A stretch of 64,000 nt of DNA from Pecten maximus (Eukaryota), in the NCBI RefSeq assembly GCF_902652985.1, contig NC_047026.1, positions 9,734,001-9,798,000 of the forward strand. Reading direction: 5' to 3'. Positions within the stretch are counted from its first letter, which is position 1. The number at the start of each line of letters is the position of its first letter. The notes under the pieces were generated by a model. The model made no database searches and was not told where the DNA came from. It saw nothing but the letters and a program-made list of their open reading frames with translations. Positions 2,336-55,066 of the stretch are shown here, one piece after another. The position numbers were made by a program, and so were the translations under genes.

Positions 2336-2439
2336 TATAATAGATCGAGCATTGTGTCTAACCTATAAATAATGACATTGCTTGTCTCAAACTTATTATA
2401 CACAATAGATTATGCACTTGTTATCAAACATAAAATGTA

Positions 2440-4236: not shown

Positions 4237-4572
4237 CGTCATTCGGATCAGGAGCAAGGTGGCATAATTTAACAACATCTCTGAAAATAGCTTGTTGATT
4301 ACAGCAGTAAACACATGACCTGTAAGTCTCGATGCTTTGAATTCTAGAGGAGAATGGATAGAACTATTGTGTCTCCACAAACTCGGTGATGATGTCATTC
4401 CAATGATAAACAGATGTTGTCTAGGCCAGGGAACCACGAATATGATGTTATGTTAAATGGTTATCATTGTCGGGATTCTTATACAATGTCACTCTCCCAG
4501 CGACAGATGTTCTGTCTCAGATTTCAACCATTCGTACACTAGCAATGAATTATTGTTACTTTATTGCAATAG

Positions 4573-5203
4573 CACGTGACGGTCCGATCTTTCACCGTCA
4601 CATTTCACTAACACGTGGCGTTCCGATATTTCACCGTCACATTTCACTTACACGTGACGGTCCGATATCTCACCGTCACATTTCACTAACACGTGACGGT
4701 CCGATATCTCACCGTCTTATTTAACGAACACGTGGCGGTCATATATCTCACCGTTATATTTCACTAACACGTGGCGGTCAGATATTTCTCTGTCACATTT
4801 CACTAACACGTGGTGGTCCGATATTTCACCGTCACATTTCACTAACACGTGGCGTTCCGATATTTTACCGTCACATTTCACTTACACTTGGTGGTCCGAT
4901 ATCTCACCGTCACATTTCACTAACACGTGACGGTCCGATATCTCACCGACACATTTCACTAACACGTGGCGGTCCGATATCTCACCGTCACATTTCATTA
5001 ACACGTGGCGTTCCGATATTTCACCGTCACATTTCACTTACAAGTGACGGTCCGATATGTCACCGTCACATTTCACTAACACGTGGTGGTCCGATATCTC
5101 ACCGTTATATTTCACTAACACGTGGCGGTCCGATATCTCACCGTTATATTTCACTAACACGTGGCGGTCCGATATCTCACCGTTACATTTCACTAACACG
5201 TGT
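4573..5203. repeat. 39-bp tandem repeat CACGTGACGGTCCGATATCTCACCGTCACATTTCACTAA, ~16 copies
   Basis: Directly visible; the unit has an internal GTGACGGT/ACCGTCAC inverted repeat and an E-box (CACGTG). Confidence 0.97.
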
Positions 5204-5542
5204 GTGACTAGATTTTGTGACCCCTATTTCTGATTTATAAATGGTGTGTATATCCAGATTCTGTGACCCCCATTTTTCTGATTTGTATGCGATGTGTCTA
5301 CCTGGACGTCAGAAAACATGCCCCGACTTTAAATGATAATTTATCCATTTCTTTACTTATTCATCCATATATATTTATTTATTTCATTTTCCTTTATTTT
5401 TGAGAAATCAAAATATCATGAAATATAAAACGATAGAAAGCAAATTTCATCAGAATTTTTCAAGGACTGATGACATTATAATTGACCGTTATGACGTCAT
5501 TGATGACATCGTCAAAAATAAGAAAATCTGTATTTGATCAAG

Positions 5543-5920
5543 ATGGATCAAATGAAGGAAATTCGTATTGATTTTGTGAACTATTTTTTAAACAGTAAAT
5601 CAACAAAATAATACACAGATGTTACACCTGTATCTAGGAATCGAATGTTTAGAATAATTTCAAAGTTTGAACAGCATGCAACAGTTGACGTCAGAAGAAA
5701 TGAATCATCTGAAAGAACAAAAACTGTAAGAAAAGATAGAAACATTGACAGTATTTGCGGCATAATGGATAAAACTTTTTGAACTTAGTGATGTCATTCA
5801 TTTTCTGATGAAAAAGGCATACTTTTACGCCGAGAAACCATTACATTACATAGCCAGAAAGTACCTGTTTGGGCAGCACGGATTATTTCTGGAATTATTT
5901 GACCATTTTTTTCTGAAGAG
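5543..5920 (+). pseudogene. Internally deleted Tc1/mariner-superfamily transposase relic (DUF4817-type N-terminal HTH)
   Basis: One frame from ATG 5543 with several stops: MDQMKEIRIDFVNYF...RIISKFEQHATVDVRRNESSERTKTVRKDRNIDSI...FSDE...LHSQKVPVWAARIISGII*PFF, matching the HTH, FSDE and LHxxKVxVW..GIIGPFF motifs. Confidence 0.7.
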
Positions 5921-6429
5921 ATAGCGAAACATCAACTTGACATGTTGTCTATATTGGATCTTTGTGATACTATTATATCCGGTCAGAATGAGTTTACGGC
6001 CGTGTTGAAGCTCTATAATAGATTATTCTATAAAATTTATATGGTTTCTCAAATAGAAGAGGAAATGGAGAAATCGTGCGTGTGATGTTGTTTCAAGTTT
6101 AGCCCAGCTTTCACCGTAAACTTAGAGTGCTACATATTAGACCCTTTGTAAACAACAACTTTGAATTATCAGGGTCATACATACTATGTCATGTACCAAC
6201 ACTCACCTCTGTTGACCAGGGCCCAAGAGCGCTTGGCAGCATAATCGTTGGCGTGGGTTCGGATCTCGCTTTCCGAATTAAGTAACTTGTAGCAAGTCTC
6301 TGATGATCGACGACTATAGGATAATTGTATATTAATAGTACTAATAAAGAATATCAGCTGTTAATTAACGGTTGCGTAAGTCGAAGACTAATATTCTGTT
6401 ATACACTCCCAACAAAGTTGTGATCTGAC

Positions 6430-6618
6430 TGAGGGCAGGAATCCTAGCCCCCGACTACTTACTCAGTCGAGACGTAATCCGGACTAGGGCAGGAATCCTA
6501 GCCCTCGACTACTGACTCAGCCGAAACTCAATATGAACTAGGGCAGGAATCTAAGCCCTTGATTACTGACTCAGTCGAGACGTAATCCGAACTAGGGCAA
6601 GAATCCTAGCCCTCGACA
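6430..6618. repeat. 54-bp tandem repeat (AGGGCAGGAATCCTAGCCC...), ~3.5 copies
   Basis: AGGGC starts at 6432, 6486, 6540 and 6594. Confidence 0.92.
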
Positions 6619-7310
6619 GCTGGGGTACATTATTTTAGGGAATTTATCCTTCCACTACTTATCCACACGAGGCGTAAATACATTGAATTTCTTCGAACCG
6701 AAAAAAAGAAAGAAAAAAAAAAAGAAAAAAAAACAACTGATTTTAGCTAAAACAGTGGACGTGGCTGTCTTAGATGTCCCTATAAGAGAGAAGACGCATA
6801 CAAAACTTCACAGCTAATGAAGTCCTTTCCATGGCTTCAGTTTGTTTGTCCGCAAATTGAAATCAATGGGGAATTGTCGGATTTCTATTACAGTAGCGAC
6901 ACACATGACAAGCTGAAATCTGACTAAAGGCTCCGCGGTCAAAGTCTTTATAAAGGATTTAGAACCGTATCGCCGATAAACTAAGGCTTCCATCTATAAT
7001 TTGATGATGACACAACGAGTTTAACTACAGCGGGGATTTGTTATCGAGCTTCTAAATATAGTATCGTCTTAAAGGTGTGTTGTAGGGCGGGAAAATAAGG
7101 GTGTATGGTAGAGCGGGAAAATAGGTGTGTGATTGGGATGTGGTACGGCGGGAAGAGAGTGCGTATGGCAGGGAGGGGCGACATGGGGATGAAAGTAGAT
7201 TCAATAATGTATTTCGATCGTGGTGCTTATATTATTGTGATCCTCTTTGAACCCCGGCCCCGCCCTTCAATGATTTCTCATTCATTATCCCTTCGCTTTT
7301 GGGTTCTTTG

Positions 7311-7535
7311 GGTGGTCGGTTGGCACAGTGGAAACACACTTTCCTTTCACCTAGGTGCCCGGGGTTCGAATCCCCGATCGAGCGTGAAAAGGTATGGTTC
7401 ACCTGCCCGTCTACGTGGATTTTCCACTTGGTACTCCAGTTTCCCTCACAGTAAGGCCCCTCGCGCGCTTCCATCAACTAGCGTGCTTAATATCATCTGA
7501 TATTACAATGTACTTGTTTCGCAATTATTGTAAGA
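7311..7535 (+). mobile_element. tRNA-derived SINE (tRNA-Glu-like head, V-domain-like core), family A copy 1
   Basis: A box TGGCACAGTGG, CTTTCAC loop, B box GGTTCGAATCC, core GGTACTCCAGTTTCCCTCACA; homologous to 41911-42140 and 60822-60965. Confidence 0.85.
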
Positions 7536-7924
7536 TAGACATAGTTTATATTCTGTTCCATATTGTTTCATCTACTTCACAACAAGGTTCCAATATGGCT
7601 GACTAATGGTGAAATCACAACCAAGCAAAATGGCAAAGACTTTTCAGTAACCATTCTGACAAATAACCGTGAAAGTTGGTACTCATATCAAACCGATCGG
7701 TTCATAATGATCCACATATTAACCGTGAAATGTGGTAATAATTAACATCTTTAATTAACAATCAAATACTTAATATCCTGTTTCCTTCTGTTGGTGGGTA
7801 ACCTGTTAGAGATCTGATGGTCTATTGCAGAATAATTTTTTTCCCCTGAATTTTGTGAGAAATGCTCACATTGAAATAAATAAGATGTTATGATATATTA
7901 TATTGGTAAGGTGAGATTATAAGA

Positions 7925-8648
7925 CTCTATCATATGTAGTCATGTAGGATAGGGATATTCCACCCGAGGGGTCACAAAATGTGGTAAAACCCGAGGCTCT
8001 GCCGAGGGTTTTACTACATTTTGTGACACAGAGGGTGAAATATCCCTATCCTACATGAACCACATATGATTGAGTATTTTTCTCTCATTCCCCAACCTAA
8101 AATATGCAAAAATAGGCACTATCTGTCGATAGCTTTCTCAGATAGACGCCATTTTTTCTCAATCCAAACTTTTTTCTACTGCATATAATAAAAAAAGAAC
8201 AGCGCCAATCGATTTACCACACCCCATATATGCAAACGTTGTTTGCTGTTCTAAAAACGAAGGAAACCATTCATTTCCACAGTCTAACGTTGTTTCAGCA
8301 GCCCTGTCATTGCAAGCGAAGCCAAATCACTTGATGTCGGCCAAGCTAGTGTGTCCTTTCGCGTGAAAATATAGTTCCATGTTTTATTAATAAAAAACAA
8401 TAAAAGAACGTGTTTTTTTTACATAATAATTCAATGTAAACAAATTTCCATTAGATCTGGCCTAGCACATGGAGCAGACGATGTGTTTACAAATCTATAG
8501 ATAGATCTACTTTCGGTTCGGCGACATACTTTTGTATCATTGCGCGCGCGTGGCTATCCTACACCGGAAGCGAGGTAATACACACACAGCAAGCATGGGT
8601 GTATTTACCTGCACAGACCAGTATGATACCGGTAGGGATGAGAGAAAT
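7925..8648. mobile_element. Non-autonomous element with a ~150-bp terminal palindrome (7925-8074) and an internal/terminal short inverted-repeat pair
   Basis: Palindrome centred on CCCGAGGCTCTGCCGAGGG; TTTCTCTCATTCCC (~8078) pairs with GGGATGAGAGAAA (~8635). Confidence 0.75.
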
Positions 8649-8721
8649 CACGTTATTTGATAGGTCGACATATCCTTTTATTTTCGTTCTGGAAGTCCAG
8701 TAGAGAACACTCTACTCTAAT

Positions 8722-9055
8722 AAATCATCAAGTCCCTGTGATCCGAATTATCCGTAACAAATTGTCAAGTCCCTGTGATCCGAATTATCCGTAACAAATT
8801 AACAGGTCCCTGTGATCCGAATTATCTGTAACAAATAAACACATCCCTGTGATCCGAATTATCTGTAACAAATTATCAAGTCCCTGTGATCCGAATTATC
8901 TGAAACAAATTATCAAGTCCCTGTGATTCGAATTATCTGTAGCAAATTATCAAGTCCCTGTGATCCGAATTATCCGTAACAAATGATCAAGTCCCTGTGA
9001 TCCGAATTATCTGTAACAAATTATCAAGTCCTTTGATTCAGATTATCTGTAAGAA
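8722..9055. repeat. 37-bp tandem repeat TCAAGTCCCTGTGATCCGAATTATC(C/T)GTAACAAATTA, ~9 copies
   Basis: Directly visible periodicity (8728, 8765...). Confidence 0.96.
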
Positions 9056-9744
9056 ATGCTGTCAAAATCTAATATACCAGATTCTCATGTCCCTGTACAA
9101 CATTGGTTGACAATTTCGTCACCCTGCCACGTAGTCAGCATTTTTGTACGGTATTAGCAAATCTCGGCTATTTTACGGAGAGTACAAATAACAGTGGGAT
9201 AGCGTTCTTTAATGTTTAACTCTAAAAGGGTTACTTATGATCCCATAAACAATAACCAAAGCCAGCTGTTATATGGCTAGACTTCAAAACCTACCAGAAA
9301 AGCATTTTCTGGTTTGTTTAGAAAGTTATAAATATTTAATACTCCGTCAAAATACATTCCAAGTTTTTTTGTTTTGTTTTTTTCAATTATGAATAAAGTT
9401 TAAATATTCCCAGCTGATGATAGATGTTTAGGTCGACGTACACAAATCGCCCCCGCTACAATTACCGACTTCCCAGCCAGTCCTTATTATCGGACTAATT
9501 AACTCATTAAATGTTGAAAAATTAGGTTTGTTAGCAGTGTGTTGTAAGGATGAAAGGTTTACTCGTGACATCAATTATAATTTTGTATATCATTAAAACC
9601 TCAAAGAGGAACATTCCAGACTCTAGCAAATTATTTTTTTCTTGAACATAATGAGTTTATAAAAAAACAAAAAACAAATAACTGATATGCATGGTAAAAT
9701 GTCAGAATATGATACGCCTTGGCATATTGGTAACATGGTCCGCT

Positions 9745-12700
9745 GACCAGTCGAGTGACGCTCTATAATATCAAGTCACACATGGGTACAATGTCCGGTA
9801 ACCAGTCGAGTGACGCTCTATAATACCAAGTCACACATGGGTACAATGTCCGGTAACCAGTCGAGTGACGCTCTATAGTACCAAGTCACACATGGGTACA
9901 ATGTCCGGTGACCAGTCGAGTGACGCTCTATAATACCAAGTCACACATGGGTACAATGTCCGGTAACCAGTCGAGTGACGCTCTATAATACCAAGTCACA
10001 CATGGGTACAATGTCCGGTAACCAGTCGAGTGACGCTCTATAATACCAAGTAGTCACACATGGGTACAATGTCAGGTGACCAGTCGAGTGACGCTCTATA
10101 ATACCAAGTCACACATGGGTACAATGTCAGGTGACCAGTCGAGTGACGCTCTATAATACCAAGTCACACATGGGTACAATGTCAGGTGACCAGTCGAATA
10201 TCGCTCTATAGTACCAAGTCACACATGGGTACAATGTCCGGTGACCAGTCGAATGACGCTCTATAATACCAAGTCACACATGGGTACAATGTCCGGTAAC
10301 CAGTCGAGTGACGCTCTATAATACCAAGTCCCACATGGGTACAATGTCCGGTGACCAGTCGAGAGTGACGTTCTATAATACCAAGTCACACATGCGTACA
10401 ATGTCCGGTGACCAGTCGAATGACGCTCTATAGTACCAAGTCACACGTAGGCACAATGTCCGGTAACCAGTCGAGTGACGTTCTATAATACCAAGTCGCA
10501 CATGGGTACAATGTCCGGTGACCAGTCTAGTGCCGCTCTATAATACCAAGTAGTCACACATGGGTACAATGTCCGGTTACCAGTCGAAAGTCGCTCTATA
10601 ATACCAAGTCACACGTGGGTACAATGTCAGGTGACCAGTCGAGTGACGCTCTATAATACCAAGTCACACATGGGTACAATGTCAGGTGACCAGTCGAGTG
10701 ACGCTCTATAATACCAAGTCACACATGGGTACAATGTCAGGTGACCAGTCGAATATCGCTCTATAGTACCAAGTCACACATGGGTACAATGTCCGGTGAC
10801 CAGTCGAATGACGCTCTATAATACCAAGTCACACATGGGTACAATGTCCGGTAACCAGTCGAGTGACGCTCTATAATACCAAGTCCCACATGGGTACAAT
10901 GTCCGGTGACCAGTCGAGAGTGACGTTCTATAATACCAAGTCACACATGCGTACAATGTCCGGTGACCAGTCGAATGACGCTCTATAGTACCAAGTCACA
11001 CGTAGGCACAATGTCCGGTAACCAGTCGAGTGACGTTCTATAATACCAAGTCGCACATGGGTACAATGTCCGGTGACCAGTCTAGTGCCGCTCTATAATA
11101 CCAAGTAGTCACACATGGGTACAATGTCCGGTTACCAGTCGAATGTCGCTCTATAATACCAAGTCACACGTGGGTACAATGTCCGGTGACCAGTCGAGTG
11201 ACGCTCTATAATACCAAGTCACACATGGGTGCAATGTCCGGTGACCTGTCGAGTGACGCTCTATAATACCAAGTCCCACATGGGTACAATGTCCGGTGAC
11301 CAGTCGAGAGTGACGTTCTATAGTACCGAGTCACACATGGGTACAATGTCCGGTGACCAGTCGAGTGACGCTCTATAGTACCGAGTCATACATGGGTACA
11401 ATGTCCGGTGACCAGTCTAGTGACGCTCTATAATACCAAGTCCCACATGGGTACAATGTCCGGTGACCAGTCGAGTGACGCTCTATAATACCAAGTCACA
11501 CGTGGGTACAATGTCCGGTAACCAGTCCAGTGACGCTCTATAATACCAAGTCACACATGGGTACAATGTCCGGTGACCAGTCGAATGACGCTCTATAATA
11601 CCAAGTCCCACATGGGTACAATGTCCGGTGACCATTCGAGAGTGACGTTCTATAATACCAAGTCACACATGGGTACATTGTCCGGTGACCAGTCGAATGA
11701 CGCTCTATAATACCAAGTCACACATGGGTACAATGTCCGGTGACCAGTCGAATGTCGCACTATAATACCAAGTCACACATGGGTACAATGTCCGGTGACC
11801 AGTCGAGTGACGCTCTATAATACCAAGTCACACATGGGTACAATGTCCGGTGACCAGTCTAGTGACGCTCTATAATATCAAGTCACACATGGGTACAATG
11901 TCCGGTGACCAGTCGAATGACGCTCTATAATACCAAGTCACACATGGGTACAATGTCAGGTGACCAGTCGAATGTCGCTCTATTATACCAAGTCACACAT
12001 GGGTACAATGTCCGGTGACCAGTCGAATGACGCTCTATAATACCAAGTCACACATGGGTACAATGTCCAGTAACCAGTCGAGTGACGTTCTATAATACCA
12101 AGTCACACATGGGTACAATGTCCGGTGACCAATCGAGTGACGTTCTATAATACCAAGTCACACATGGGTGCAATGTCCGGTAACCAGTCGAATGTCGTTC
12201 TATAGTACCAAGTCACACGTGGGTACAATGTCCGGTGACCAGTCTAGTGACGCTCTATAATACCAAGTCACACGTGGGTAGAATGTCCAGTGATCAGTCG
12301 AGAGTGACGTTCTATAATATCAAGTCACACGTGGGCACAATGTCCGGTGACCAGTCTAGTGACACTCTATAGTACCAAGTCACACATGGGTACAATGTCC
12401 GGTGACCAGTCTAGTGACGCTCTATAATACCAAGTCCCACATGGGTACAATGTCCGGTGACCAGTCGAGAGTGACGTTCTATAATACCAAGTCACACATG
12501 GGTACATTGTCCGGTGACCAGTCGAATGACGCTCTATAATACCAAGTCACACATGGGTACAATGTCAGGTGACCAGTCGAATGTCGCTCTATTATACCAA
12601 GTCACACATGGGTACAATGTTCGGTAACCAGTCGAGTGACGCTCTATAATACCAAGTCACACATGGGTACAATGTCCGGTGACCAGTCGAATGACGCTCT

Positions 12701-13156
12701 ATAATACCAAGTCACACATGGGTACAATGTCCGGTGACCAGTCGAGTAACGTTCTATTATACCAAGTCACACATGGGTACAATGTCCGGTGACCAGTCGA
12801 GTGACGCTCTATAGTACCAAGTCACACATGGGTACAATGTCCGGTAACCAGTCGAGTGACGCTCTATAGTACCAAGTCACACGTTGGTACAATGTCCGAT
12901 GACCAGTCGAATGTCGCACTATAGTACCAAGTCACACATGGGTACAATGTCAGGTGACCAGTCTAGTGACGCTCTATAATACCAAGTCACACATGGGTAC
13001 AATGTCCGGTTACCTGTCGAGTGACGCTCTATTATACCAAGCCACACATGGGTACAAAGTCCGGTGACCAGTCGAGTGGCGCTCTATAATACCAAGTCAC
13101 ACATGGGTACAATGTCCGGTGACCAGTCTAGTGACACTCTATAATACTAAGTCACG
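9745..13156. repeat. 55-bp satellite GACCAGTCGAGTGACGCTCTATAATACCAAGTCACACATGGGTACAATGTCCGGT, ~62 copies
   Basis: Directly visible; includes a duplicated ~555-bp (10-mer) block. Confidence 0.98.
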
Positions 13157-13279
13157 CAAATTTCATGTCGCATTACATCGTTCTAGGTCTTTAACTTTCC
13201 TTTATACTGATACCGATCCATTAAACTGACATTAAGACGGAACATATCTTTGATGAGACAGGACACATGTTTGTTGATA

Positions 13280-14395
13280 AGGGACTATTGCTTGGTAAGA
13301 CGGGACTAATGTTTGGTAAAACGGGACTAACGTTAAGTAAGACGGTACTCATGTTTGATAAGACGGGACTAATGCTTGGTAAGACGGGACTAATGGTTGG
13401 TAAGACGGGACTAATGGTTGGTAAGACGGGACTAATGTTTGGTAAGACGGGACTAATGGTTGGTAAGACGGGACTCATGTTTGGTAAGACGGGACTAATG
13501 TTTGGTAAGACGGGACTAATGTTTGGTAAGACGGGACTAATGTTTGGTAAGACGGGACTAGCGTTTGGTAAGACGGGACTAATGTTTGGTAAGACGGGAC
13601 TAATGGTTGGTAAGACGGGACTAATGTTTAGCGAGACGGGACTAATGTTTGGTCAGACGGGAGTAATGTTTGGTAAGACGGGACTATTGTTTTGTAAGGC
13701 GGGACTAATGTTTGGTAAGATAGGACTAACGTTAAGTAAGACGGGATTAATGTTTGGTAAGACAGGACTAACGTTAAGTAAGACGGGATTAATGTTTGGT
13801 AAGACGGAACTAATGTTTGGTAAGACGGGACTAATGTTTGGTAAGACGGGATTAATGTTTGGTAAGACGGGACTAATGTTTGGTAAGACGGGACTAATGT
13901 TTGGTAAGACGGGACTAACGTTTGCTAAGACGGTACTTATGTTTGGTAAGACGGGACTAATGTTTAGCGAGACGGGACTAATGTTTGGTAAGACGGGACT
14001 AATGGTTGGTAAGACGGGACTAATGTTTAGCGAGACGGGACTAATGTTTGGTCAGACGGGACTAACGTTTGGTAAGACGGTACTAATGTTTGGTAAGACG
14101 GGACTAATGGTTGATAAGACGGGACTAACGTTTGGTAAGACGGGACTATTGTTTTGTAAGGCGGGGCTGTTGTTTTGTAAGACGGGACTAATGTTTGGTA
14201 AGACGGGACTATTGTTTTGTAAGACGGGACTAATGTTTGGTAAGACGGGACTAATGTTTGGTAAGACGGGACTATTGTTTTGTAAGACGGGAGTAATGTT
14301 TGGTAAGACGGGACTAATGTTTGGTAAGACGGGACTATTGTTTTGTAAGACGGGACTAATGTTTTGTAAGACGGGACTATTGTTTGGTAAGACTG
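13280..14395. repeat. 21-bp minisatellite GGTAAGACGGGACTAATGTTT, ~53 copies
   Basis: Directly visible; explains the (MFGKTGL)n ORF. Confidence 0.97.
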
Positions 14396-15367
14396 ATTAA
14401 TTGTCTTAACATCTAAATCCACCAGGATTATGTTCGTCGCACCCCGCGTAGTAATACCTTGTGAGTGATTTGCCCACCGGTACATATATTGTCACCATGT
14501 CGGATCCTTGTAGAATCGAGACATACCAGACCGCTTGAATATCAGTGAAACATACACCCATATAACATGTTATTCAACAAAGCCTGCTATGAAGTAGACA
14601 GATTTGATGAGCGAGGGAAGACAGGAGGTATTAATTCTCATTTAAACGTGGCACGTAAAGTGCAGCACTATTTACATCAACTCTCGCTAATCTCCGGAAG
14701 TCACGGATCAATGTTTTATGGCCGACAATACATTTTTCTGATTTAGTCCGACGTTAATGTTTGGAAGAACCGGAAGTTGACAAATGGACATTTGTGACTC
14801 TATATTCTGGTTTTGTTGTTACCCTTAATGGCACAAAAGCTTCGAAACTTGTCTTGTCTCTGCCCATGCGCAATGGAGTGTCTTGACACGTTCACATGGT
14901 CTAATTTCGTTCCTTTTCCGGACCGGAAAAAACGTATTATTTTATTTCTGGTCCATTTCCTTTGGAAAATGCAATGGCTATTATACCGACGTTACACGAC
15001 AACATATTTTATTAGATTTGAAGGTTTCACGCCCAGTAAGTAATTATTCACACGTCAGTAAAAGACAATCACTACCTTAGCAAATATCTTGTGCCATAAT
15101 TAAGTCAATGGTACATTTGTAATACCTTTATCCTTTCATTAGACTCCTCTTTACTAGGAGATTAATAATAATTTTGGTCATTTCTACAGGATTCCCATTA
15201 GAAGTGTCCATCTTATTCCCTGTATACCTCTGCTATGCTATCAATCTGAAACATCTCCCAGTAATTTGACATGTACATTATCGATATAAAAACTACAATA
15301 GCAGTTTACCAACACATAAAGATAACACTGCTGAAACTGTTTTACAAAGGTTAATATCACAAGATAT

Positions 15368-15678
15368 CATTGGTCAAAGTATCCGGGTCATACCATTGGT
15401 CAAAGTATTCGGGTCAAACTATTGGTCAAAGTATCCGGGTCCGACTATTTGTCAAAGTAACCGGGTCAGACTATTTGTCAAAGTAACTGGGTCAGACCGT
15501 CGATCAAAGTCTCCGGGCCCCAGACCGTCGGTCACAGTCTACAGGTCTCAGTCCACGATCAAAGTCTCATTGTTTCAGACCGTCGGTCAAAGTCTCCGGG
15601 CCTCACACAGTCGGTCAAGGCTTCCGCTTCAGAGACCTTCGGTCATAGTCTCAAGGTCTCAGACCGACGGTCAAAGTG
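15368..15678. repeat. Diverged ~26-bp tandem repeat (TGGTCAAAGTATCCGGGTCAGAC...)
   Basis: GGTCAAAGT recurs about every 26-27 bp with progressive drift. Confidence 0.8.
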
Positions 15679-16499
15679 TTCGACATGAAAGAGGTGCTGT
15701 GAACTGTAGAGAATCACAAAATGTTGGTCTCTAGACTGGATGTGCTACTGTTTACGACGCCTCCTCCTCTGACCTGACGAGTGATCATTCTAAGTAGCTA
15801 ACTGTAATATCAGGGAGAAAAACATTTGCATTTGTATAAATCACGTAAGGAAATGTTTAATTAAAACCCAAATAGATTTTATAACTTTTAGAACACCACA
15901 CCTTTAATTTTAATTAGTCCCGGGTTGTCATGGTGAAAAGAACGCTTGACATTAACGTGGTCTTGGTGAACATTTACAACTAAGACGATATTTTATGAAT
16001 GCAATTCAAACTAATTAGTTTTACATAACCATTGTCTTTCCTTGTCATGCGCCTCATTATTTAAACTTATTATCTCTGATTAACGTGACAAGGCTATGTT
16101 TCATCCTTAATTGGCTCTCTTCCCGATTCTCACCATGGCGGGAGTTCTGGTGTTAGTCGGCCCATATCAGATTTTTAAAAGACTGATACAACATCAGAAA
16201 TATTCGGATTACTGTCACATCTGGTGTAGAAAATATTATATGAATTGTTATGATATATGTAATATGATATGACGTCATCATAAATTACCTATATTTGCTT
16301 GGATGTATCATTATATCATTTAGTTTCAACATTGCATAATGTGCTTTCTTCATTATGATTTCGTAGAGCCGTAATATTATTCGATATTATATCATTATAC
16401 CATCCAGTCAATATATTTTTCACGATAATCATGATACAATTGCCACATATACTACTTTATTATTGAACACCTTTAATCCTAGTATATTATTGATTGCTA

Positions 16500-16660
16500 T
16501 TTTGCTGGGTTTATCGCCCCGTTAACAGCCTGGTCATTTTGAGGTGGGGTATCCTTGTAGTAGAACGTGGCTACCTCACTGAACAACATATGGGAGGTCC
16601 GTCGCGCAATGAAGGGAAGATGTCTTGTCCTGGGACAAAACCACGACTGCAGAGACCGCC
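16500..16660 (-). mobile_element. Probable SINE 3' fragment
   Basis: GGGTTTATCGCCCCGTTAACAGCCTGGTCATTT resembles the tail of the 42361-42584 SINE; TGTCTTGTCCTGGGAC is CORE-like. Confidence 0.35.
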
Positions 16661-17411
16661 TCGTTTCTCATCTTAGTTTATACGGTAATACATGGTAACT
16701 ATATCAGTGAAATAGACACAGAAGTAAGTGTCGATATATTGCGAGACAAAAAAAAAAGAGTAAAATATACTTAAATAATCGCATTTAATGAAAAAAGGAG
16801 GTCATTTAATTTCGATTCAATGTGCGCGTGATATTTGGCGCCTTGTTGCTATAACTTATTGGCGCCTCATCGTTATAAATAATTGGCGCCTGTTGCTTTT
16901 GATGATTAGCGTTTGGTCGCTATAAATGACGACACTGGTCCTCTGTGGGAACATGTCCGCAAAGGAAAGAAATATACAGATCAACCTTACAAACAGAGGT
17001 CATCAGACCTTTGTTGTTATTACAATATCCATTATTGCTGTTGTGTATCCTAAATCAATATAATTAATTACAGGAGAACACGGTCGTACTGACAATATTT
17101 TGTTTGGCAAGTAATTTAAAACGTGTGAAACGTATATTGTTCCCTCAAAATAATTCTTTAACAAAATTAAAACCATTCACCACCATTACTACATGGCGAG
17201 CATACAAAGGATCCCACATTCAAATCAAACTGTATGAGATAAAGATCTAAAGTAAATCTAGACTTTGTTGAATCTAATTAGTGGTCCTGAAGCTGCTCGT
17301 TAAACATTAATTAATATGCATAAAACGGTACCCACGATACAGAATAAAAAGGAGGATGCAATTAATTATTTTTGATAATAACGCGAAGCTCAGTAGATCA
17401 AAAGAGATACT

Positions 17412-18055
17412 TAACTTTGGAGGGTTGGCGTTAATGGCGTTAAGTGAGTAACTATTGGAAGGTTGTAATGACGTTAGGTGAGTAACGTTTGGAAGGTTGT
17501 AATGGCGTTAGGTGAGTAACGTTTGGAAGGTTGTAATGACGTTAGGTGAGTAACGTTTGGAGGGTTGTAATGACGTTAAATGAGTAACTTTTGGAGGGTT
17601 GTAATGGCGTTAGGTAAGTAACTTTTGGAGGGTTGTAATGGCGTTAGGTGAGTAACTTTTGGAGGGTTATAATGACGTTAGGTGAGTAACTTTTGGAGGG
17701 TTGTAATGACGTTAGGTGAGTAACTTTTGGAGGGATGTAATGACGATGTAACTTTTGGAGGGTTGTAATGGCGTTAAGTGAGTAACTTTTGAAGGGTTGT
17801 AATGGCGTTAAGTGAGTTACTTTTGGAGGGTTGTAATGACGTTAAGTGAGTAACTTTTGGAGGGTTGTAATGGCGTTAAGTGAGTAACTTTTGGAGGGTT
17901 GTAATAACGTTATGTGAGTAACTTTTGGAGGGTTGTAATGGCGTTAAGTGAGTTACTTTTGGAGGGTTGTAATGACGTTAAGTGAGTAACTTTTGGAGGG
18001 TTGTAATGGTGTTGAGCGAGTAATTTTTGAGAGTTGTAATGCCGTTAAGTGAGTA
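17412..18055. repeat. 34-bp tandem repeat AACTTTTGGAGGGTTGTAATG(A/G)CGTTA(A/G)GTGAGT, ~19 copies
   Basis: Directly visible. Confidence 0.97.
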
Positions 18056-20871
18056 GATTTTGGTTTCATCTTGAGATCTATCTGTAGGAGATGTATAGCC
18101 TATTTAGACGTAGCCAGTTCGATTTTGCAGCTGACATTCTTTAAATTCGTTCCTACATCTGGAGGCATCCGGCCTGCGCGTGATTTGAATTATTGCGGCT
18201 AATAATCCAACAGAAACCCTGTCACCGAAAGAATGATATGTGCTTGGTTTCCGCTTATTTTTAATTGCAAACTTGCTTCAAATGCTCGTTTATCATATGT
18301 TGTGGGCCTAAAGGAATGAATTGTCTGACAAACCTTAAAGAGAGCCACACTTTCGGTGACACACCTCAAGTGCCCATTGACATCCCCGAATACTGGTGTC
18401 ATTGATATTTATATACAACACCCCTACCGACATGTACTCACAGGAGATATGTAACTCCTAGTGTTAATTAGAATTAATGGTGAACTACTATTCCCGTCAC
18501 TATCATATAACATCTATACTACGTGTAAGACTTGAGGTCTCCACAGTAATTAAAACTAATTTTAGAATAAGACTTGTTCAGCGTTTCCGAAAATATGCAG
18601 ATTGATTGATTTCACTTTATTGACGTAATTGCCATTAGAAAGAGTTATTGTTTGAACAAAATAGATAAATTTACTGATTCAAATATCGAGGAGTGTTTTC
18701 GGTTATTTCGTCTCCTGTTTAACAGTGAGCTCATTATCGACCCCGTAAATCTACTCCTATGCTGTTTTTTTTTATCCCTGGTATTTTTACAGGAAAATAA
18801 TGTAATTGATAAAACCATTATAATAGGAGATATTTCTTTGTTTGTCTTATGACCTTATACATCGTTCACACGTGACATTGGACCAGACAACATTATGTCC
18901 GGTAGGGTGACGTTTCCGGTTAAATCCGCTGTAAACAGGTTTTATCTGAAGACATAATTGTTTAGAGTGTGTTTATAACCTCTTTTAATATGTAAAATAT
19001 TGATTTTCCTCTTAGTAAAGCTCGAGAATGAAGACATATTCGTTGATCAGCTAATGGGAAATTGTACATTGAAACTTTCAAGATGAAATAAAGGGAAAAT
19101 ATCGTATCGTGTTGTAAGCTCGTTCTAAAAAAAGGAAAGAAAGGTTGACTAAAAGAAAGCGAACCAAATTCCTAATTGTTCCTAAGCTCGTTTAGAAGAA
19201 AAACAGGTAATTTTTGTTCTTAAGTTTCTCTCTTTTCTCTGCTGGCTGTTCCAAACCATTCCATTGTATACATTCAATCTACACAATGAGCATGTGAGAT
19301 TTTACTACCTTCTCCAATACGGAGTAGATTTTCTCGTATACTGTCCCTCTAAAACACAGGTTGTCATAGACCGATAATTTCAAACACGACTATCCTTTTG
19401 TCTCCAATCACTGGAATCACCGGTTGACATCGATTTAAGTCGTAATGACTTCTGTGATGTATCTTGGGGTTTTGCGATGATCTTGTGGCGGTACACGACT
19501 TCCTTCCGGTTGCGCAATGAACTGAATTTTATTGGCACTTCAAAGTAAGATTCTTAAACCGCACACTGTCTTAACATAGCTTTTTTATTTTTTTTATTCC
19601 TTTTTACAGCACTAGCTTGTATCATCCATTCCTCCAAAGTATGGTACAGTTTGAGTCACCGTGTGTTTATATCACAGCGTGCATCGTACAGAAACCAAGT
19701 AATATTCACAGCCTTTCTTTTCATATAGCCTTCATCTTATAAAAATGTTGAAAGTTATTTTCACGGTCAAAATAATGACGTCACATTTTGTGTGTTCAAT
19801 ATTTTTGACGTCCTCATTAAATGTACTGTTTTTGTGTGTCGTCGTATGGTGAATTTGAGGGATACAAGGCCGTCTTAACGACAATTATTTGATAAGCTAA
19901 CCGACAAAATGCACCCTCTCCTGTAATGATCTACAGAAAGACAAGTACGTCTACATAATCACCATCCTTTAATCGGAATGACGGCCACGAGCAACTTGTG
20001 ACGTAAAAGCAGAGCGGTGGCCGCCCACACTTTCCAACACAGCAAGAAGGTCGGTTGTCTAGTTGAGATTTTATTACAGTCAAACGACTACTAGAATTTA
20101 TCAGGGATTTAACTTTTTATATATCAATATTCCCGATTCTCTTCCTTATTGTCGGAATGTTTTCGACATCCTGGAGACAGCCCGATTAGGAAAGTTTCCG
20201 TGATAGATGCCGACTGCAGATGGGAAAAAACATTAAAGGGACTTCGATCGCCACAATGATCTGATGGATTATGTATTCAACAGCCCGGTTCTCTTGACCT
20301 AGATTTTTCAGGTGAACATGGACTATGAGTAATGGAAAATTTCTATGATTCGTAGTAAAGCATGAAATGTAGGTCTGTGTGTTACGAATGTAAGGTAACT
20401 CATGAATATTGATGAGAGAAATGAGTTACACGTGGATTGTATGGCGTAAGCAGGTGGTGTGGTGTACAGGTGAGATAATCATTCTAGCCTGCGACCACAG
20501 AGTGCACGGTCGGTATACATAATTTAAAATGCTGCGGGAATGTAGTTTTTTTATATTGAGTTTCTGAGTTTAAGTTACTTTTGTTTTATTGATAAAAGTT
20601 TTCAGACGGCTTGTTTATACTGTAAATGTAACCTTTAAAGGTTTTCCAGAGACTTTGGCTTATTAAGGTTCATGTAAATACTGATCCAGTGATATTTTAT
20701 AAGCCTGTAAAACACTACTCTGGTAAAATGGAACAGAACTAACTTGGTCAATTGTTAATACGTATCATGGCTATCCATGGGTCTCGCTTTTGACATTTAA
20801 TTTGTTAAGCTGTTTGTTAATTTCGCCAAAACATGCGTGAATTGTAAGTTTTATGCGAACAGAGAAAGCTC

Positions 20872-22039: not shown

Positions 22040-22666
22040 ATGTAGTCTCTGAGCCCGTAACAGAGGTGTATGCTAGCTTTCGTAAGAGTCTCTGAGCCCG
22101 TGACAGATGAGTATTGTAGCTTTCGTAAGAGTCTCTGAGCCCGTGACAGATGAGTATTGTAGCTTTCGTAAGAGTCCCTGAACCCGTGACAGATGTGTAT
22201 TGTAGCTTTCGTAAGAGTCCCTGAACCCGTGACAGATGTGTATTGTAGCTTTCGTAAGAGTCCCTGAACCCGTGACAGATGAGTATTGTAGCTTTCGTAA
22301 GAGTCCCTGAACCCGTGACAGATGTGTATTGTAGCTTTCGTAAGAGTCCCTGAACCCGTGACAGATGAGTATTGTAGCTTTCGTAAGAGTCTCTGAGCCC
22401 GTGACATATGTGTATTGCAGCTTTCGTAAGAGTCCCTGAGCCCGTGACAGATGTGTATTGTAGCTTTCGTAAGAGTCCCTGAGCTAGTGACAGATGTGTA
22501 TTGTAGCTTTCGTAAGAGTCCCTGAGCCCGTGACAGATGTGTATTGTAGCTTTCGTAAGAGTCTCTGAGCCCGTGACAGATGTGTATTGTAGCTTTCGTA
22601 AGAGTCCCTGAGCCCGTGACAGATGTGTATTGTAGCTTTCGTAAGAGTCCCTTGGCCACTTACAAG
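22040..22666. repeat. 43-bp satellite (CGTAAGAGTC(C/T)CTGAGCCCGTGACAGATGTGTATTGTAGCTTT), array 1
   Basis: Directly visible, ~14 units. Confidence 0.97.
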
Positions 22667-23087
22667 TGTGAACTACAGGGTTGTAGTCACTTGTAGAATT
22701 GTTGTGTATGGTGTAAGAGAGGAAGACGGAGTCCAGGTAGTTGTATCTTGGTTTATTTAGGTGTGTAGAACTGCTCAGTCCAGTCCTTGGAAACCGACTA
22801 CATAATATAGTAACATCTAACCTTTTATAGTCCTAAGTCCTAGGTATGAGTATATATGATTGATTGATACAGGATAATACAGAAGACGGCTGTCATATAG
22901 CCTAAGACAATATTAGATAACCATGTACAACATGTACCATTAATATCAGATCAACTACGTCAACAGGTAAACAAGTTGGTTCCAAAGGGCAAATGTGTTA
23001 TATAAAAATACAGACCTAGGAATATTTTTAGATATAAAATCTGATATATATTTTTAACTAAATTTTAAAATAATTTATTATATTTCA
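22667..23087 (-). mobile_element. Solo LTR (421 bp, TG...CA)
   Basis: Near-identical to 23607-24027 and 26421-26841. Confidence 0.9.
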
Positions 23088-23606
23088 ATATCGTATATTG
23101 TAGCTTTCGTAGGAGTCGCTGAGCCCGTGAGAGAAGTGTATTGTAGCTTTCGTAAGAGTCCCTGAGCCCGTGACAGATGTGTATTGTAGCTTTCGTAAGA
23201 GTCCCTGAGCCCGTGACAGATGTGTATTGTAGCTTTCGTAAGAGTCTCTGAGCCCGTGACAGATGTGTATTGCAGCTTTCGTAAGAGTCTCTGAGCCCGT
23301 GACAGATGTGTATTGTAGCTTTCGTAAGAGTCCCTGAGCCCGTGACAGATGTGTATTGTAGCTTTCGTAAGAGTCTCTGAGCCCGTGACAGATGTGTATT
23401 GTAGCTTTCGTAAGAGTCCCTGAGCCCGTGACAGATGTGTATTGTAGCTTTCGTAAGAGTCCCTGAGCCCGTGACAGATGTGTATTGTAGCTTTCGTAAG
23501 AGTCTCTGAGCCCGTACAGATGTGTATTGTAGCTTTCGTAAGAGTCCCTGAGCCCGTGACAGATGTGTATTGTAGCTTTCGTAAGAGTCCCTTGGCCACT
23601 TACAAG
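23088..23606. repeat. 43-bp satellite, array 2 (~12 units)
   Basis: Same unit as array 1. Confidence 0.97.
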
Positions 23607-25362
23607 TGTGAACTACAGGGTTGTAGTCACTTGTAGAATTGTTGTGTATGGTGTAAGAGAGGAAGACGGAGTCCAAGTAGTTGTATCTTGGTTTATTTAC
23701 GTGTGTAGAACTGCTCAGTCCAGTCCTTGGAAACCGACTACATACTATAGTAACATCTAACCTTTTATAGTCCTAAGTCCTAGGTATGAGTATATATGAT
23801 TGATTGATACAGGATAATAAAGAAGACGGCTGTCATATAGCCTAAGACAATATTAGATAACCATGTACAACATGTACCATTAATATCAGATCAACTACGT
23901 CAACAGGTAAACAAGTTGGTGCCAAAGGGCAAATGTGTTATATAAAAATACAGATCTAGGAATATTTTTAGATATAAAATCTGATATATATTTTTAACTA
24001 AATTTTAAAATAATTTATTATATTTCATTCGTCCCTTGGACAAAAATGATTTCAAATTAGATATAATTTCGACATCATATAAGTAGATTCTAAAATAATT
24101 AATTATGTTGATAACGTCCCTTTGTCATAAATTATTGAAAAGTAAGAGAAATATAACATGTTTAGATTATGTAAACCAAAAAATTAAAATAACGAAAGAA
24201 ATTGTGGTGAAGGCTAGATACTTATACTAAATATTATGACGGTATAGTATTGAATGAAATGACATTCATTATACATTGCTTACATTAGAATAAGAAATGA
24301 AGTCATACAGATACAAATAATGAATGGAATACTAATCATGAAGTTACATGATTACATTACGTAGTACGTAACAAAAATCATAAAGGAATAAAGCTTATAA
24401 TGAAATGACATAGCAATATATATATTACTAATAGTAATATCAAATGTATTAATCAAATAACATTTAGTTTGTACTTTATATGTGTACAAAAACTTTAAAT
24501 GTGTATAAATACATTATAACATATGTACTTGAAATGCATTAAAATATATAAACAAAAGATAAGAATTAAATTCACACAATATTTTCTTCACACAGTTCAC
24601 TTGTTGTAATTCCAGTATTAATGTCCAACGTAATTAAAGAAATGTTTATGTACTGTTATTAAAATGAATGTTAAAATGAAATGGCGTGGATACGATGTAC
24701 AACCATCTGTAAATCCAACTGTAAATTCTCGCACTCCAATTAGGCTGAGAAGATGTAAAAAAAATGTCAGAAAGTTCCATGTAATGTAAAGATGTTCCTC
24801 TTCGGAAGTGGAAGTGGTATATCCTTTTTCCTCGGCAATTGTACTGCATCGAGTATTCCAAATCCGTCGAATAATCTTGTTAAGTGTTAGTGGATGTGTA
24901 GATGTAGATATTTCTTCTTCGGACAAGGAAATGTAGACTTATTTTTCCCTGGCATTTGAACTGCATCAGGTATTTCCTTATCCGTTGAAGTATGGTGCGT
25001 TGTTATGTCGTTCGAGTGCAGTAGATTATATTTTAGATATCTGTGCGTGTATTATCACGTCACTATCTCTGACTCTGACATAATATGGAAAGTTCAAATT
25101 ACAAATTTAACCTCGTGGTGGAATCACGTTAGGCTGAACTCTCCATTGTAGATATAGGTGAAGACGTCTCTTCGGTATATATGAATAAATGAAATTGTTG
25201 TAATATATGTTGAATAGTGTCTCTTCAGTTGAAGATATTAAAAATGAATTCAAAGCCTCTTCTTATATGTTGAGGATGATATTATGATGAAAATGTTGGA
25301 ACTTCTGTATGGAAAACACAGCACATAAACAATTCAATAAAACGTTGAAGAAAATGAATGTA

Positions 25363-26400
25363 TTAATCCTCTTCAATAACCGGAGGTGGCATTATGGATT
25401 GAAGTCGTGGATACATTGGCGTTGGCTGGTACGATGGTGGTATCAATGGTACTGCCGCTGGTGAAGGAACTGGTGACGAACTGGTGACATGAGAAGAACT
25501 TCTCTCTTGCTTACTTTCACTTAAGCTATAGTCAACAGACTTAGTAGATTTGACCTTTCTTCCACTACACTTACGTGAACATTTGCAATACAAATACAAT
25601 AAAACTATAATAATAATAATACCAACCAGAGCTGAAAGCACTGGAATTAAATATTGTTTAAAATCCCAAATATCACTATCTATAGGTTCTACTGTTGATA
25701 GTTCTTTAATCAAGGATTCCATAGATATTTTGTCCATTTGTTGTAAATTACTTGGAATGGCTACTGTGGAATAGTTTGGAAATTTTTGGTGAAAGGGGTG
25801 CCATAATGAGCTAATTGAAATATTTAAGTGTAGGTGTGATGGAAATGTTATATTTAGTGGACGAGTAGCTGATGATTTCTGAAACGAAGCAGCTAGACTA
25901 AGGTGGTCACTAGATGCTGAGCATGAATATGGAACATGGATAATTTGGATAGGGGGTTTAACACATATTTGTTTAGTTTCGTCCAAATTTTGACAAACTT
26001 TTTATTTGATGTAATGGCCCAAGAACCATTTGCGATATGAAAAGCTAGCGGTAGTTGAGAATTTGGGACAACAATAGTTACACAATATTTATTTATATTT
26101 ATTTTGTTGTCAGTAAAAAGAGCAACAATACAATGTTTACTTAAATTAATTTGGGTATATAGGAGATGTAAATTGACAATGGTTATAAAAAGGGTGAGTA
26201 CATGAGCTAACATCTTCTTCATTAAGAAGTATATACTTAGATATTTCTGGATTGACAGCAATAGCTGTAGATTCCAGTTGATACTTTGCAACAAGTTTGC
26301 AAGCAGCACAATCTTGATTATTTGAAGTTGGTGAATTAGATGAAATCGGCATAGTCACAGGAATATTAAATACATTATACAGACGAAATTTGTTGGAGGC
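25363..26400 (-). pseudogene. Envelope/fusion glycoprotein-like gene (baculovirus-F/errantivirus env-like), C-terminal half, two frameshifts
   Basis: Three overlapping ORF pieces: LYNVFNIPV..AVNPEISKYILLNEEDVSSC..HC / CIVALF..KYC..NGSWAI / IIHVPYSCSASSDHLSL, then TM helix LIPVLSALVGIIIIIVLLYLY, a Cys/Lys stop-transfer segment and a Pro-rich tail. Confidence 0.75.
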
Positions 26401-26401
26401 G

Positions 26402-26418
26402 TCCTGGTCACGGCACCA
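26402..26418 (-). promoter_or_regulatory. Primer-binding site complementary to the tRNA-His 3' end
   Basis: TGGTGCCGTGACCAGGA is the reverse complement of ...TCCTGGTCACGGCA-CCA of invertebrate tRNA-His(GTG). Confidence 0.88.
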
Positions 26419-26841
26419 GATGTGAACTACAGGGTTGTAGTCACTTGTAGAATTGTTGTGTATGGTGTAAGAGAGGAAGACGGAGTCCAAGTAGTTGTAT
26501 CTTGGTTTATTTACGTGTGTAGAACTGCTCAGTCCAGTCCTTGGAAACCGACTACATACTATAGTAACATCTAACCTTTTATAGTCCTAAGTCCTAGGTA
26601 TGAGTATATATGATTGATTGATACAGGATAATACAGAAGACGGCTGTCATTTAGCCTAAGACAATATTAGATAACCATGTACAACATGTACCATTAATAT
26701 CAGATCAACTACGTCAACAGGTAAACAAGTTGGTTCCAAAGGGCAAATGTGTTATATAAAAATACAGATCTAGGAATATTTTTAGATATAAAATCTGATA
26801 TATATTTTTAACTAAATTTTAAAATAATTTATCATATTTCA

Positions 26842-26990
26842 ATATCGTATATTGTAGCTTTCGTAGGAGTCCCTGAGCCAGTGACAGAGGTGTATTGCAA
26901 CCTTCGTACGAGTCCCTGAGCCATTGAGAGAGGTGTATTTTAGCTTTTGTAAGAGTCCCTCAGCTAGTGACAGACGTATAGTGTAGCTAC
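26842..26990. repeat. 43-bp satellite, diverged array 3 (~3.5 units)
   Basis: Decayed copies of the same unit. Confidence 0.9.
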
Positions 26991-30910: not shown

Positions 30911-31116
30911 ACCTGTTGAGATCCCGTGTCATGCTGGGCATCATATCGACTGACATATCCTGTGTGGGCGATGATAATGCTGTCTGGAACACCAGCAACG
31001 ACGCTATCAGACAAACATCCCTTTGATTCCTGTCATCAAACAGTTGCCAATAAATCTAGAATAGTGTCTCGAAAAACAACCGATTTTAGTTGTCAGTGAA
31101 AACACACATTCGAATC

Positions 31117-32394
31117 ATGCTGGAACATCAATTAAAATCGATCAATCGATTCATGCACATGTTCAAGAACCGAACAACGGAGTTTGATTTTACCAACACG
31201 ACATCTACACCTTGGGCTCAACGTCACTCTGATGAAGTGTTCGAGAAGCTCATCTTGGCGTTCGCGTATGGCATTCTCATAGTGATATCGTTTTTTGGGA
31301 ACAGTATAGTCTGTTACGTAATCCTACGGAACAGGCGGATGTACACAGTGACAAACTTCTTCATCGCTAACATGGCTATGTCAGACTTACTGCTCACACT
31401 GTTCAACGTTCCTTTCAACATAGCTAAACACCTTCTGGACAACTGGCCGTTCGGCGACGTTCTTTGTCATTTCGTGAATTTTTCACTGATGGTATCAGTT
31501 TATGTTTCGACCTTCACCTTGACCGCCATAGCCCTTGACCGACAGAACGTGCTACTTAAACCTCTCCAGCCGCGCATGACGAAACAGATGGGCCTGGTCG
31601 TGCTAGTGATAATTTGGTTGATTGCGATTTTCTTTTCCTTGCCGTACGGTATTTTCAATAAGGTACAAAGTATAAGTATGATGGTAAAGAGGGTCGACAG
31701 ATGTAGTCCGCACTTCCCAGAACCACAGGAAGTTTTTGCGAAGTATCTGACACTGGTTACAGTTGTATTACAGTATATAATCCCGCTGAGCATTATTGCC
31801 GTGGCATACGGTAGGATCGTGATGCGCCTGTGGAAGCGAGTGCAGCTCGGAGCCGTAACGCGAACGCAACAAATGTCACAGGCGAAAGCGAAACGCAAAA
31901 GTATCAAGCTGCTGGTGACTGTCGTCATTGTGTTCGCGCTGTGCTGGATGCCTTTGAACTTGTACCACATATTGACCCAGTTTCATCCGGATATCCGGAC
32001 ATTTACGTACGACAGTACAGCGTTTTTCGTGTTCCATTGGATCGCCATCAGCAGTACGTGTTACAATCCGTTCGTATATTGCTGGCTTAACGAGAGCTTC
32101 CGAGCGGAAGTCAAATCTTGCTTCAGCTGCTGCAAGAGATCGCGACGTGTACATCCGGGCATTGATGTTGATGGTATGCTCATCCGCCATGATGTATTCC
32201 GGCGATCGAAGACTATAACGAGCATGATTCGATCGAGCACTACTTTCAGTTCTATCCGGATAACTACCAACACCAGTGTTCACAGAGACTCATACCCGTT
32301 TTGTGTCAGAGACCAAACACCACTGGTCAACTCTCAGAAGTTTGTCTCCACTGAATTCTCCAATGTAATGTGTGAAGACAACTTAACTAGTTAG
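31117..32394 (+). CDS. GPR83: Rhodopsin-class (class A) neuropeptide-family GPCR, GPR83-like; intronless CDS, 425 aa from the first in-frame ATG
   Basis: Seven TM segments; GNSIV, TNFFIANMAMSD, WPFG..C, TLTAIALDRQ, CWMPLNLY, HWIAISSTCYNPFVYCWLNESFR (close to the GPR83 TM7); N-terminal NRT and NTT sequons. The symbol denotes similarity, not proven orthology. Confidence 0.9.
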   Translation: MLEHQLKSINRFMHMFKNRTTEFDFTNTTSTPWAQRHSDEVFEKLILAFAYGILIVISFFGNSIVCYVILRNRRMYTVTNFFIANMAMSDLLLTLFNVPFNIAKHLLDNWPFGDVLCHFVNFSLMVSVYVSTFTLTAIALDRQNVLLKPLQPRMTKQMGLVVLVIIWLIAIFFSLPYGIFNKVQSISMMVKRVDRCSPHFPEPQEVFAKYLTLVTVVLQYIIPLSIIAVAYGRIVMRLWKRVQLGAVTRTQQMSQAKAKRKSIKLLVTVVIVFALCWMPLNLYHILTQFHPDIRTFTYDSTAFFVFHWIAISSTCYNPFVYCWLNESFRAEVKSCFSCCKRSRRVHPGIDVDGMLIRHDVFRRSKTITSMIRSSTTFSSIRITTNTSVHRDSYPFCVRDQTPLVNSQKFVSTEFSNVMCEDNLTS

Positions 32395-40474: not shown

Positions 40475-41195
40475 ATTTCGTCCGTTATACACAGGTTAAC
40501 AAAAACTGATTTTATGTTTCGTCCGTTATACACAGGTTAACAAAAATGATATTGACAGTTTCGTCCGTTATACTAAGATTAAAAACTGGTATTAACAGTT
40601 TCGTCCGTTATACTAAGATTAAAAACTGGTATTAACAGTTTCGTAAATTATAGACATGTTAAAGAATAATGATATTTACAGTTTCGTCCGCTAAGAAAGT
40701 TTAACAAAAAACTTATATTAACAGATTCGTCCGTTATACACAGGTTAACAAAAAATGATGTTATCGGTTTGGTCCGTAATACACAGGTTAACGAATGATA
40801 ATATTGACAGCTTCGTCCTTTATAGATAGGTTATCAAAAACTGATATTATCAGTTTCGGCCGCTTAGACAGGTTAACAAAAACTGATATTAACAATTCAT
40901 CCGTTATAGACAGGTTAGCAAAAACTGATATTAACAATTCATCCGTTATAGACAGGTTAGCAAAAACTGATATTAACAATTCATCCGTTATAGACAGGTT
41001 AGCAAAAACTTATATTAACAATTCATCCGTTATAGACAGGTTAGCAAAAACTGATATTAACAATTCATCCGTTATAGACAGGTTAGCAAAAACTGATATT
41101 AACAATTCATCCGTTATAGACAGGTTAACAAAAACTGATACTAACAATTCATCCGTTATAGACAGGTTAACAAACACTGATATTATCAGTTTCAA
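40475..41195. repeat. 42-bp tandem repeat TTCATCCGTTATAGACAGGTTAGCAAAAACTGATATTAACAA, ~17 copies, homogeneous in the right half
   Basis: Directly visible. Confidence 0.95.

Positions 41196-55025: not shown

Positions 55026-55066
<41 letters not shown>

Follow-up and report, generated by a model that had tools for sequence, protein, structure and literature searches.

How does an LTR element come to have complete ends and half of an envelope gene, with neither gag nor pol beside it, and is such a form able to spread? These questions are raised by an element at positions 23607 to 26841 of a 64,000-nucleotide stretch of the Pecten maximus genome (contig NC_047026.1, positions 9,734,001 to 9,798,000; "the window" below). 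It reads on the minus strand, and its internal region lies between paired TG..CA LTRs of 421 nt each that are four substitutions apart: the 5′ LTR at 26421..26841, with a TATA-like motif at LTR position 259 and AATAAA at 331, and the 3′ LTR at 23607..24027. Positions 1-304 of the 5′ LTR are common to a non-coding family (family B, discussed below), and positions 305-421 form a tail called type A. Two nucleotides past the LTR is a 17-nt primer binding site (PBS) for tRNA-His(GTG) at 26402..26418, whose 18th base mismatches the tRNA complement and is already env. An end complementary to the PBS is present in host tRNA-His(GTG) genes (23 places in the genome, with 2 loci confirmed by ARAGORN). 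A short polypurine tract (PPT, 24028..24037) directly adjoins the 3′ LTR, and the minus-strand stretch 24028..25475 holds the last ~36 env codons and a long AT-rich 3′ non-coding region with 89-97% identity to the 3′ part of family B. The original prediction had described the paired LTRs with about four differences, the 17-nt PBS and the PPT, an env-like sequence directly after the PBS and the lack of gag-pol. All of these were confirmed: env homology sets in at 26403, within the final bases of the PBS, and the internal region contains neither a gag nor a pol ORF. The LTRs, PBS and PPT are errantivirus-like. A second PPT-like motif is present in the window about 75 nt upstream, and elsewhere in the genome L087, L091, L097 and similar loci are solo-like LTRs that reach ~80 nt further upstream through the PPT, some with a target site duplication (TSD) at the extended end.

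What remains of env is best read against L055, a natural env relative from the same genome that is open for 582 codons (with a break of its own near the end) and begins like a signal peptide, with a stretch resembling a furin site and fusion peptide at residues 113-134. The homology runs through three frames, all on the minus strand. The first piece (26152..26403) is 72.6% identical to L055 residues 312-393 and ends at a break near 26150; the second (25995..26150) is 85.7% identical to residues 394-442 and stops near 26000 at a second break, which is a short deletion; the third (25363..25998) is 60.6% identical to residues 450-553 and includes a predicted transmembrane segment (25647-25591) and a Pro/Ser-rich tail with a stop. 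Since the retained part starts at residue 312, the N-terminal 311 or so residues are gone. The start, signal peptide, furin site and fusion peptide are absent from the window copy, and the remnant would therefore be neither secreted nor cleaved and would not be fusogenic.

The protein family can be named through relatives. A search with the L055 protein returned 103 proteins, many of them molluscan and many labelled PF12259 (Baculo_F), and an alignment and profile were built from 44 of 104 sequences (L055 and its relatives). While PF12259 is matched by 29 of the 44 aligned relatives (E<=0.001), Pfam gave nothing above cutoff on the window env pieces and no Baculo_F match on L055 itself, so the link from the window to PF12259 and class I fusion proteins is transitive. 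The profile of the 44 relatives matches the window in order, at 26403-26152 (3e-21), 26249-25995 (8e-18) and 25998-25504 (3e-35), and against the PDB it finds 9w4d and 9w4c ("fusion protein") with E ~1e-12, the match covering the retained region. For L055, the predicted model (pLDDT 73, pTM 0.52) best matches the F proteins of RSV and paramyxoviruses (E 7e-10, TM 0.3-0.44, large rmsd). By homology, then, what is left is an F-type class I env reduced to its C-terminal half, with a predicted transmembrane segment. The claim that a fusion-protein half had been retained is borne out by the profile matches and the fold of the L055 model, and the proposed comparison of env with Baculo_F and class I fusion proteins did find F-type homology, by way of the relatives. 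Many further env-F loci exist in the genome (28-59% identity); several of them are open over 550-710 codons, and the genome hosts several errantivirus-like families.

The lineage is visible in these relatives. The C8 relative (72% env DNA identity) has gag, pol and env, with PR-RT-RH-IN upstream of env and therefore a pol in Ty3/gypsy order; in the window copy the corresponding gag and Ty3/gypsy pol are deleted. Together with the profile and model matches, the env relatives support an origin in a recently active env-carrying lineage of Ty3/gypsy type, as had been proposed. A BEL/Pao origin was considered because of the His PBS and rejected: the env is F-type, not gB or Gc, a BEL-type pol was not found, and the relatives lie behind a pol in Ty3/gypsy order without DUF5641. 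The LTRs of the 72% gag-pol-env relatives match the window element over no more than 34 nt, and the degraded copy C5 (83-89% in env, 79% in the LTR tail) is older and interrupted. A weak search of longer proteins for the env of the direct parent gave only P0001, at 54%. Two places on C17 (7427806-7470715 and 12708670-12756956) hold nested, fragmented clusters of env-bearing and family-B pieces with His PBS sites, which could be a transposon graveyard or a piRNA cluster.

Has the env-only form spread? In the 918-Mb assembly at least 43 places match the LTR with 85-100% identity (40 of 146 candidates scored). The pattern of LTR end plus PBS matches once genome-wide, and the env-bearing kilobase has no other copy above 88% (27 of 27 candidates scored), its best matches being one degraded copy at 83-88% and then five at 71-72%. 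Several insertions with the same internal junction were not found in the assembly, which has one copy. The original prediction had supposed that the deleted form itself was mobilised by a helper, and had named a junction confined to this locus as an outcome that would refute it; with the junction and the env kilobase found once, this is not supported, and the element is likely an inert relic and not a spreading env-only element. Nor was a helper seen: in 20 stretches, each of 10 kb and adjacent to an LTR or PPT-side match (again with 40 of 146 LTR candidates scored), no linked gag-pol-env was present, and the full-length relatives with the same LTR for which a search had been proposed were not found there. 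One candidate, L096, has pol and env homology; it is an unrelated element read from the opposite strand and was rejected.

That the junction is unique does not in itself mean that the deletion followed insertion; lying flush against the PBS, it speaks for an error of reverse transcription. The junction (26402..26404, minus strand) is a 3-nt microhomology between the end of the PBS and mid-env, with zero leader bases. The last three PBS bases are present at the aligned env place in 4 of 4 natural env relatives, and the next four bases past the junction are the same in the C8 relative and the window. Exact His-PBS sites number 117 in the genome; among the first 30 examined, 25 have the tRNA-matching 18th base, where the window has the env base. 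A 5′ breakpoint at PBS base 17-18 with short homology to the 3′ breakpoint is what the class of PBS-flush deletions from plus-strand transfer is reported to show. We consider it probable that the window holds a single-locus, dead-on-arrival copy of an env-F Ty3/gypsy (errantivirus-like) element, made by a failed second strand transfer. Plus-strand strong-stop DNA, whose 3′ end is a copy of the tRNA-His primer, would have paired with a minus strand that had reached only mid-env and not the PBS; both strands would then have been completed and the short DNA integrated into a minisatellite. Retroviral Psi lies in the 5′ UTR/gag (PMC12789967), and its place in this family may be similar. A copy with no leader would lack the usual packaging signal, and it likely never moved again and would then have gathered indels. 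Unequal exchange in the minisatellite likely set a solo-LTR version alongside and may have erased the TSD. The flush PBS junction, the microhomology in 4 of 4 relatives, a replicate of the junction at another locus (L117, below) and an indel load fitting post-insertion decay support a failed transfer; the lack of a TSD, which L117 and most relatives have, a PBS of 17 and not 18 nt and the shortness of the microhomology count against it.

Env-carrying elements express env from spliced RNA. Reverse transcription of a spliced env mRNA would indeed yield the order LTR-PBS-env-LTR, but it would also keep the signal and fusion peptides, and the join in the window is mid-env, 311 codons past the start, where none of the four relatives has an acceptor AG at the aligned place. 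These points largely refute an origin from spliced mRNA, which we regard as very improbable.

Among the 30 His-PBS sites, two candidates for a similar junction were recognised by eye, the first of which was then tested. L117 (C4:20534128) is a 433-nt TRIM-like mini element of a BEL/Pao-like, DUF5641-bearing family, with identical 61-nt LTRs and a 5-bp TSD. Its 18-nt His PBS runs directly into the final codons of pol through a 6-nt microhomology; of 4 matches no other has this junction, and L117 is a clean replicate of the PBS-flush junction. In L108 (C2:7846097), also His-primed, the PBS is followed by ~25 unmatched bases and then by protease sequence 97-98% like that of four other copies; the element is ~1.75 kb (leader/gag) shorter than the C439 copy. 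Pfam on the 18 frames that open directly behind the 30 His-PBS sites gave one weak match, the L108 protease (E 0.048), and BLASTP of L108 against the C8 pol was negative. Because both were picked by eye, 2 of 30 is a rough, unsystematic figure. These junctions bear on an alternative in which a full-length element was inserted and later lost the stretch from PBS to env through microhomology-mediated chromosomal DNA repair. A single locus is what such a loss would leave, 3 nt of microhomology is typical of end joining too, and the locus is unstable (it has a solo-LTR duplicate and no TSD). The breakpoint would, however, have to fall on the last PBS bases by chance, although the internal sequence of a relative exceeds 6 kb; the flush junction recurs in the unrelated His-primed L117 with its identical LTRs; and the deleted form is present in 3 of 3 DNA runs. 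A post-insertion deletion therefore seems unlikely to us.

Sequence data from other individuals address both the reality of the junction and the whereabouts of the parent. Parts of the region are contained in 18 runs from 7 studies, of which five (X1, X2, X3, X6 and X10) were compared. Contigs that bridge the junction occur in all three DNA runs compared (X1, X2 and X3, from three studies), one of which may be the assembly's own source. An assembly artefact might be suspected in a repeat-rich context where the LTR and flank are duplicated, but contigs of three runs bridge the junction, and we find this explanation scarcely credible. Against the window, the junction contigs show 0 differences in X1, 0 in X2 and 3 in 176 nt in X3. 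The X1 junction contig diverges from the window after 26367, and an X1 contig joins the LTR end to the minisatellite of the locus, with only 22 letters on the LTR side, fewer than the required minimum. The differences of the X1 and X3 junction contigs may be alleles; the contigs are short, and separate insertions are possible. A second kind of contig, found in X3, X10 and X6, follows env with 2-3% differences from the window and leaves it exactly at 26404; that of X6 is 4,461 nt long, 3,487 of them beyond the junction. X10 is recorded as RNA and X6 is RNA by guess (RNA libraries can contain DNA), and none of the listed contigs of these two runs bridges the junction, an outcome that depends on cover. 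From where they leave the window, the contigs would represent the un-deleted parent, which is absent from the assembly.

These contigs offer some comfort to the idea of an env-only form that, being non-autonomous, relies on a helper for packaging and copying: an un-deleted relative does exist in other individuals, junction contigs differ between runs, and the second env break is common to X1, X2 and the window. The LTRs, PBS and PPT are intact, and the sister derivative family B has clearly been mobilised. Against this, the assembly has one copy where 17 family B loci were examined, and there is no leader, while family B, which spread, keeps one of 1.28 kb. Junction-contig depth is like that of neighbouring env contigs (9-26) and far below that of the LTR contigs, a weak hint. 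The original prediction had also taken two frameshifts beside near-identical LTRs as a sign that the deleted form was mobilised. With an indel:substitution ratio of 0.18 (from comparison with six family-B copies) and four differences between the LTRs, the 1,036-nt remnant should have gained 0.9 indels since insertion, and the probability of two or more is ~0.22 (0.03-0.66 over rate uncertainty), which is not significant. At the first break (26150) X2 and X3 contigs differ in length from the window. The second, near 26000, is present in X1 and X2 contigs, and the X10 contig departs from the window there; from its presence in X1 and X2, it could predate integration. As one break is variable and the other common to the deleted form, both can be explained without a further round of copying. 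The argument from frameshifts is thus weak, and copying of this form by a helper is in our judgement improbable.

The insertion site has a history of its own. The element sits in a 43-bp minisatellite that extends over 22044..26988 in three blocks (22044-22652, 23096-23592 and 26846-26988) and has 13 matches genome-wide, all at this locus. A solo LTR at 22667..23087 (minus strand) is flanked on its left and right by the same sequences as the whole element, differs from each element LTR at 6 positions and has one derived base in common with the 5′ LTR. No TSD is present at the ends of the element, and in relatives it measures 4 bp: among nine solo LTRs of the same type, five have an exact 4-bp TSD and a further three are one base off. 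The third LTR, the minisatellite and the missing TSD had not figured in the original prediction. The order at the locus is array, solo LTR, array, element and degenerate array, which unequal exchange between a solo-LTR version and a full version would likely give; the solo-LTR duplicate could also be two haplotypes merged in the assembly. That the TSD was lost through minisatellite turnover is a guess. Elsewhere in the window there are many unrelated minisatellite arrays (1-18063, 40476-41193 and 61256-64000, with periods of 18, 21, 22, 34, 37, 39, 42 and 55 bp), a 434-codon ORF on the plus strand at 31090-32391 for a rhodopsin-family GPCR (7tm_1, E 5e-63) and, at 54343-60001, ~450-bp inverted repeats (94-96%) around frames for a LINE-like endonuclease and reverse transcriptase (55099-58321), which may be a LINE lying within a DNA transposon.

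If the env-only copy did not spread, a relative did. Family B elements (L073-L080, L084, L100 and L137-L143) are 3.2-3.7 kb long, and their LTRs have positions 1-304 in common with the window element and a different tail, ending TA rather than CA. They have a degenerate His-like or other PBS and a leader without long ORFs, in two PBS/leader variants, after which come ~36 codons from the end of env and the 3′ region that the window element also has. This 3′ 1.45 kb (25475 down) occurs at 89-97% in at least 16 other places nearly whole and in one more in two pieces (40 of 83 candidates scored). The 17 paired loci, found among 30 examined, amount to ~14 independent insertions; 10 have an exact 4-bp TSD, 3 have none, 3 are truncated and 1 was unparsed. 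LTR pairs are up to 440/440 identical. L074 and L084, both inside an intact TSD, combine a type-B 5′ LTR with a 3′ LTR that ends in a type-A tail (98% and 91% identical to that of the window element), and in L074 the U3 parts are alike at 298 of 304 positions and only 87% like the window's. Such mixed LTRs would likely have arisen by strand transfer between co-packaged RNAs, and since the two tails lack homology, gene conversion at a later time is the less likely cause. Asymmetric LTRs in HIV have been explained by strand transfer between two co-packaged RNAs (PMC9278108), and intermolecular transfers are discussed in PMC12789967. Family B thus appears to be a non-coding derivative of the same lineage, mobilised in trans; the trans-mobilisation proposed for the env-only copy holds for this sister family and fails for the single-locus copy. 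The family-B leader is also found at 81-90% in seven loci (L144-L150) that have neither this LTR nor the 3′ region and probably form a further non-autonomous family with the same leader.

The window element is a real, young and likely inert deletion product, and as a relic it matters little in itself. What it points to is a young lineage of env-F errantiviruses, variable from one individual to another and accompanied by a non-coding parasite. Tentatively, and we would not yet bet on it, there may be a three-part system: an enveloped errantivirus absent from the assembly and present and expressed in other individuals, an ETn-like family B travelling in its particles, of which the TSD-bounded insertions with one LTR of each type would be the record, and strand-transfer accidents like the env-only copy. 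If true, this would be a case, outside insects and vertebrates, of an F-type envelope carrying a non-coding parasite from cell to cell, and mini LTR elements would commonly be born through PBS-flush deletions. Errantivirus transmission outside Drosophila is described as unknown in PMC13524379; with a parent varying between individuals and young parasite insertions as the read-out, it would become observable. The window copy is also a clean natural record of an error otherwise reported from retroviral vector work.

Three known systems invite comparison. Pulsinelli and Temin reportedly described, in 1991, PBS-anchored deletions caused by plus-strand-transfer errors in retroviral vectors. That class is like the window junction in that the deletion reportedly starts from the 3′ end of the PBS and sequence resumes downstream on short homology; it is said to come from vectors in culture, whereas the examples here are fossil and germline, in invertebrate Ty3/gypsy and BEL/Pao elements. 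No literature on env-only or PBS-flush derivatives of such elements was found in a search that fell short of most subscription papers. The family itself is not new: F-type env Ty3/gypsy elements of molluscs, some of them His-primed, appear as "ancient" errantiviruses in Chary and Hayashi (eLife 2026, PMC13524379), where 2 of 15 mollusc rows (15 of the 46 in supplement 1) combine a His(GUG) PBS with LTRs of 370-445 nt. Those elements resemble ours in an F-type env with furin site and fusion peptide (seen here in the relative), an RSV/paramyxovirus-F-like fold, molluscan relatives and, in the nearest gag-pol-env relative, the PR-RT-RH-IN order of pol. That collection is of intact elements, whereas the window copy has no gag, pol, leader or N-terminal half of env. 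Family B, finally, resembles the mouse pair ETn and MusD (PMC6466679): like ETn, it is non-coding, keeps traces of a coding progenitor, outnumbers that progenitor and has young insertions. The analogy is with family B and not with the env-only copy, and the progenitor here has env, whereas MusD lost it.
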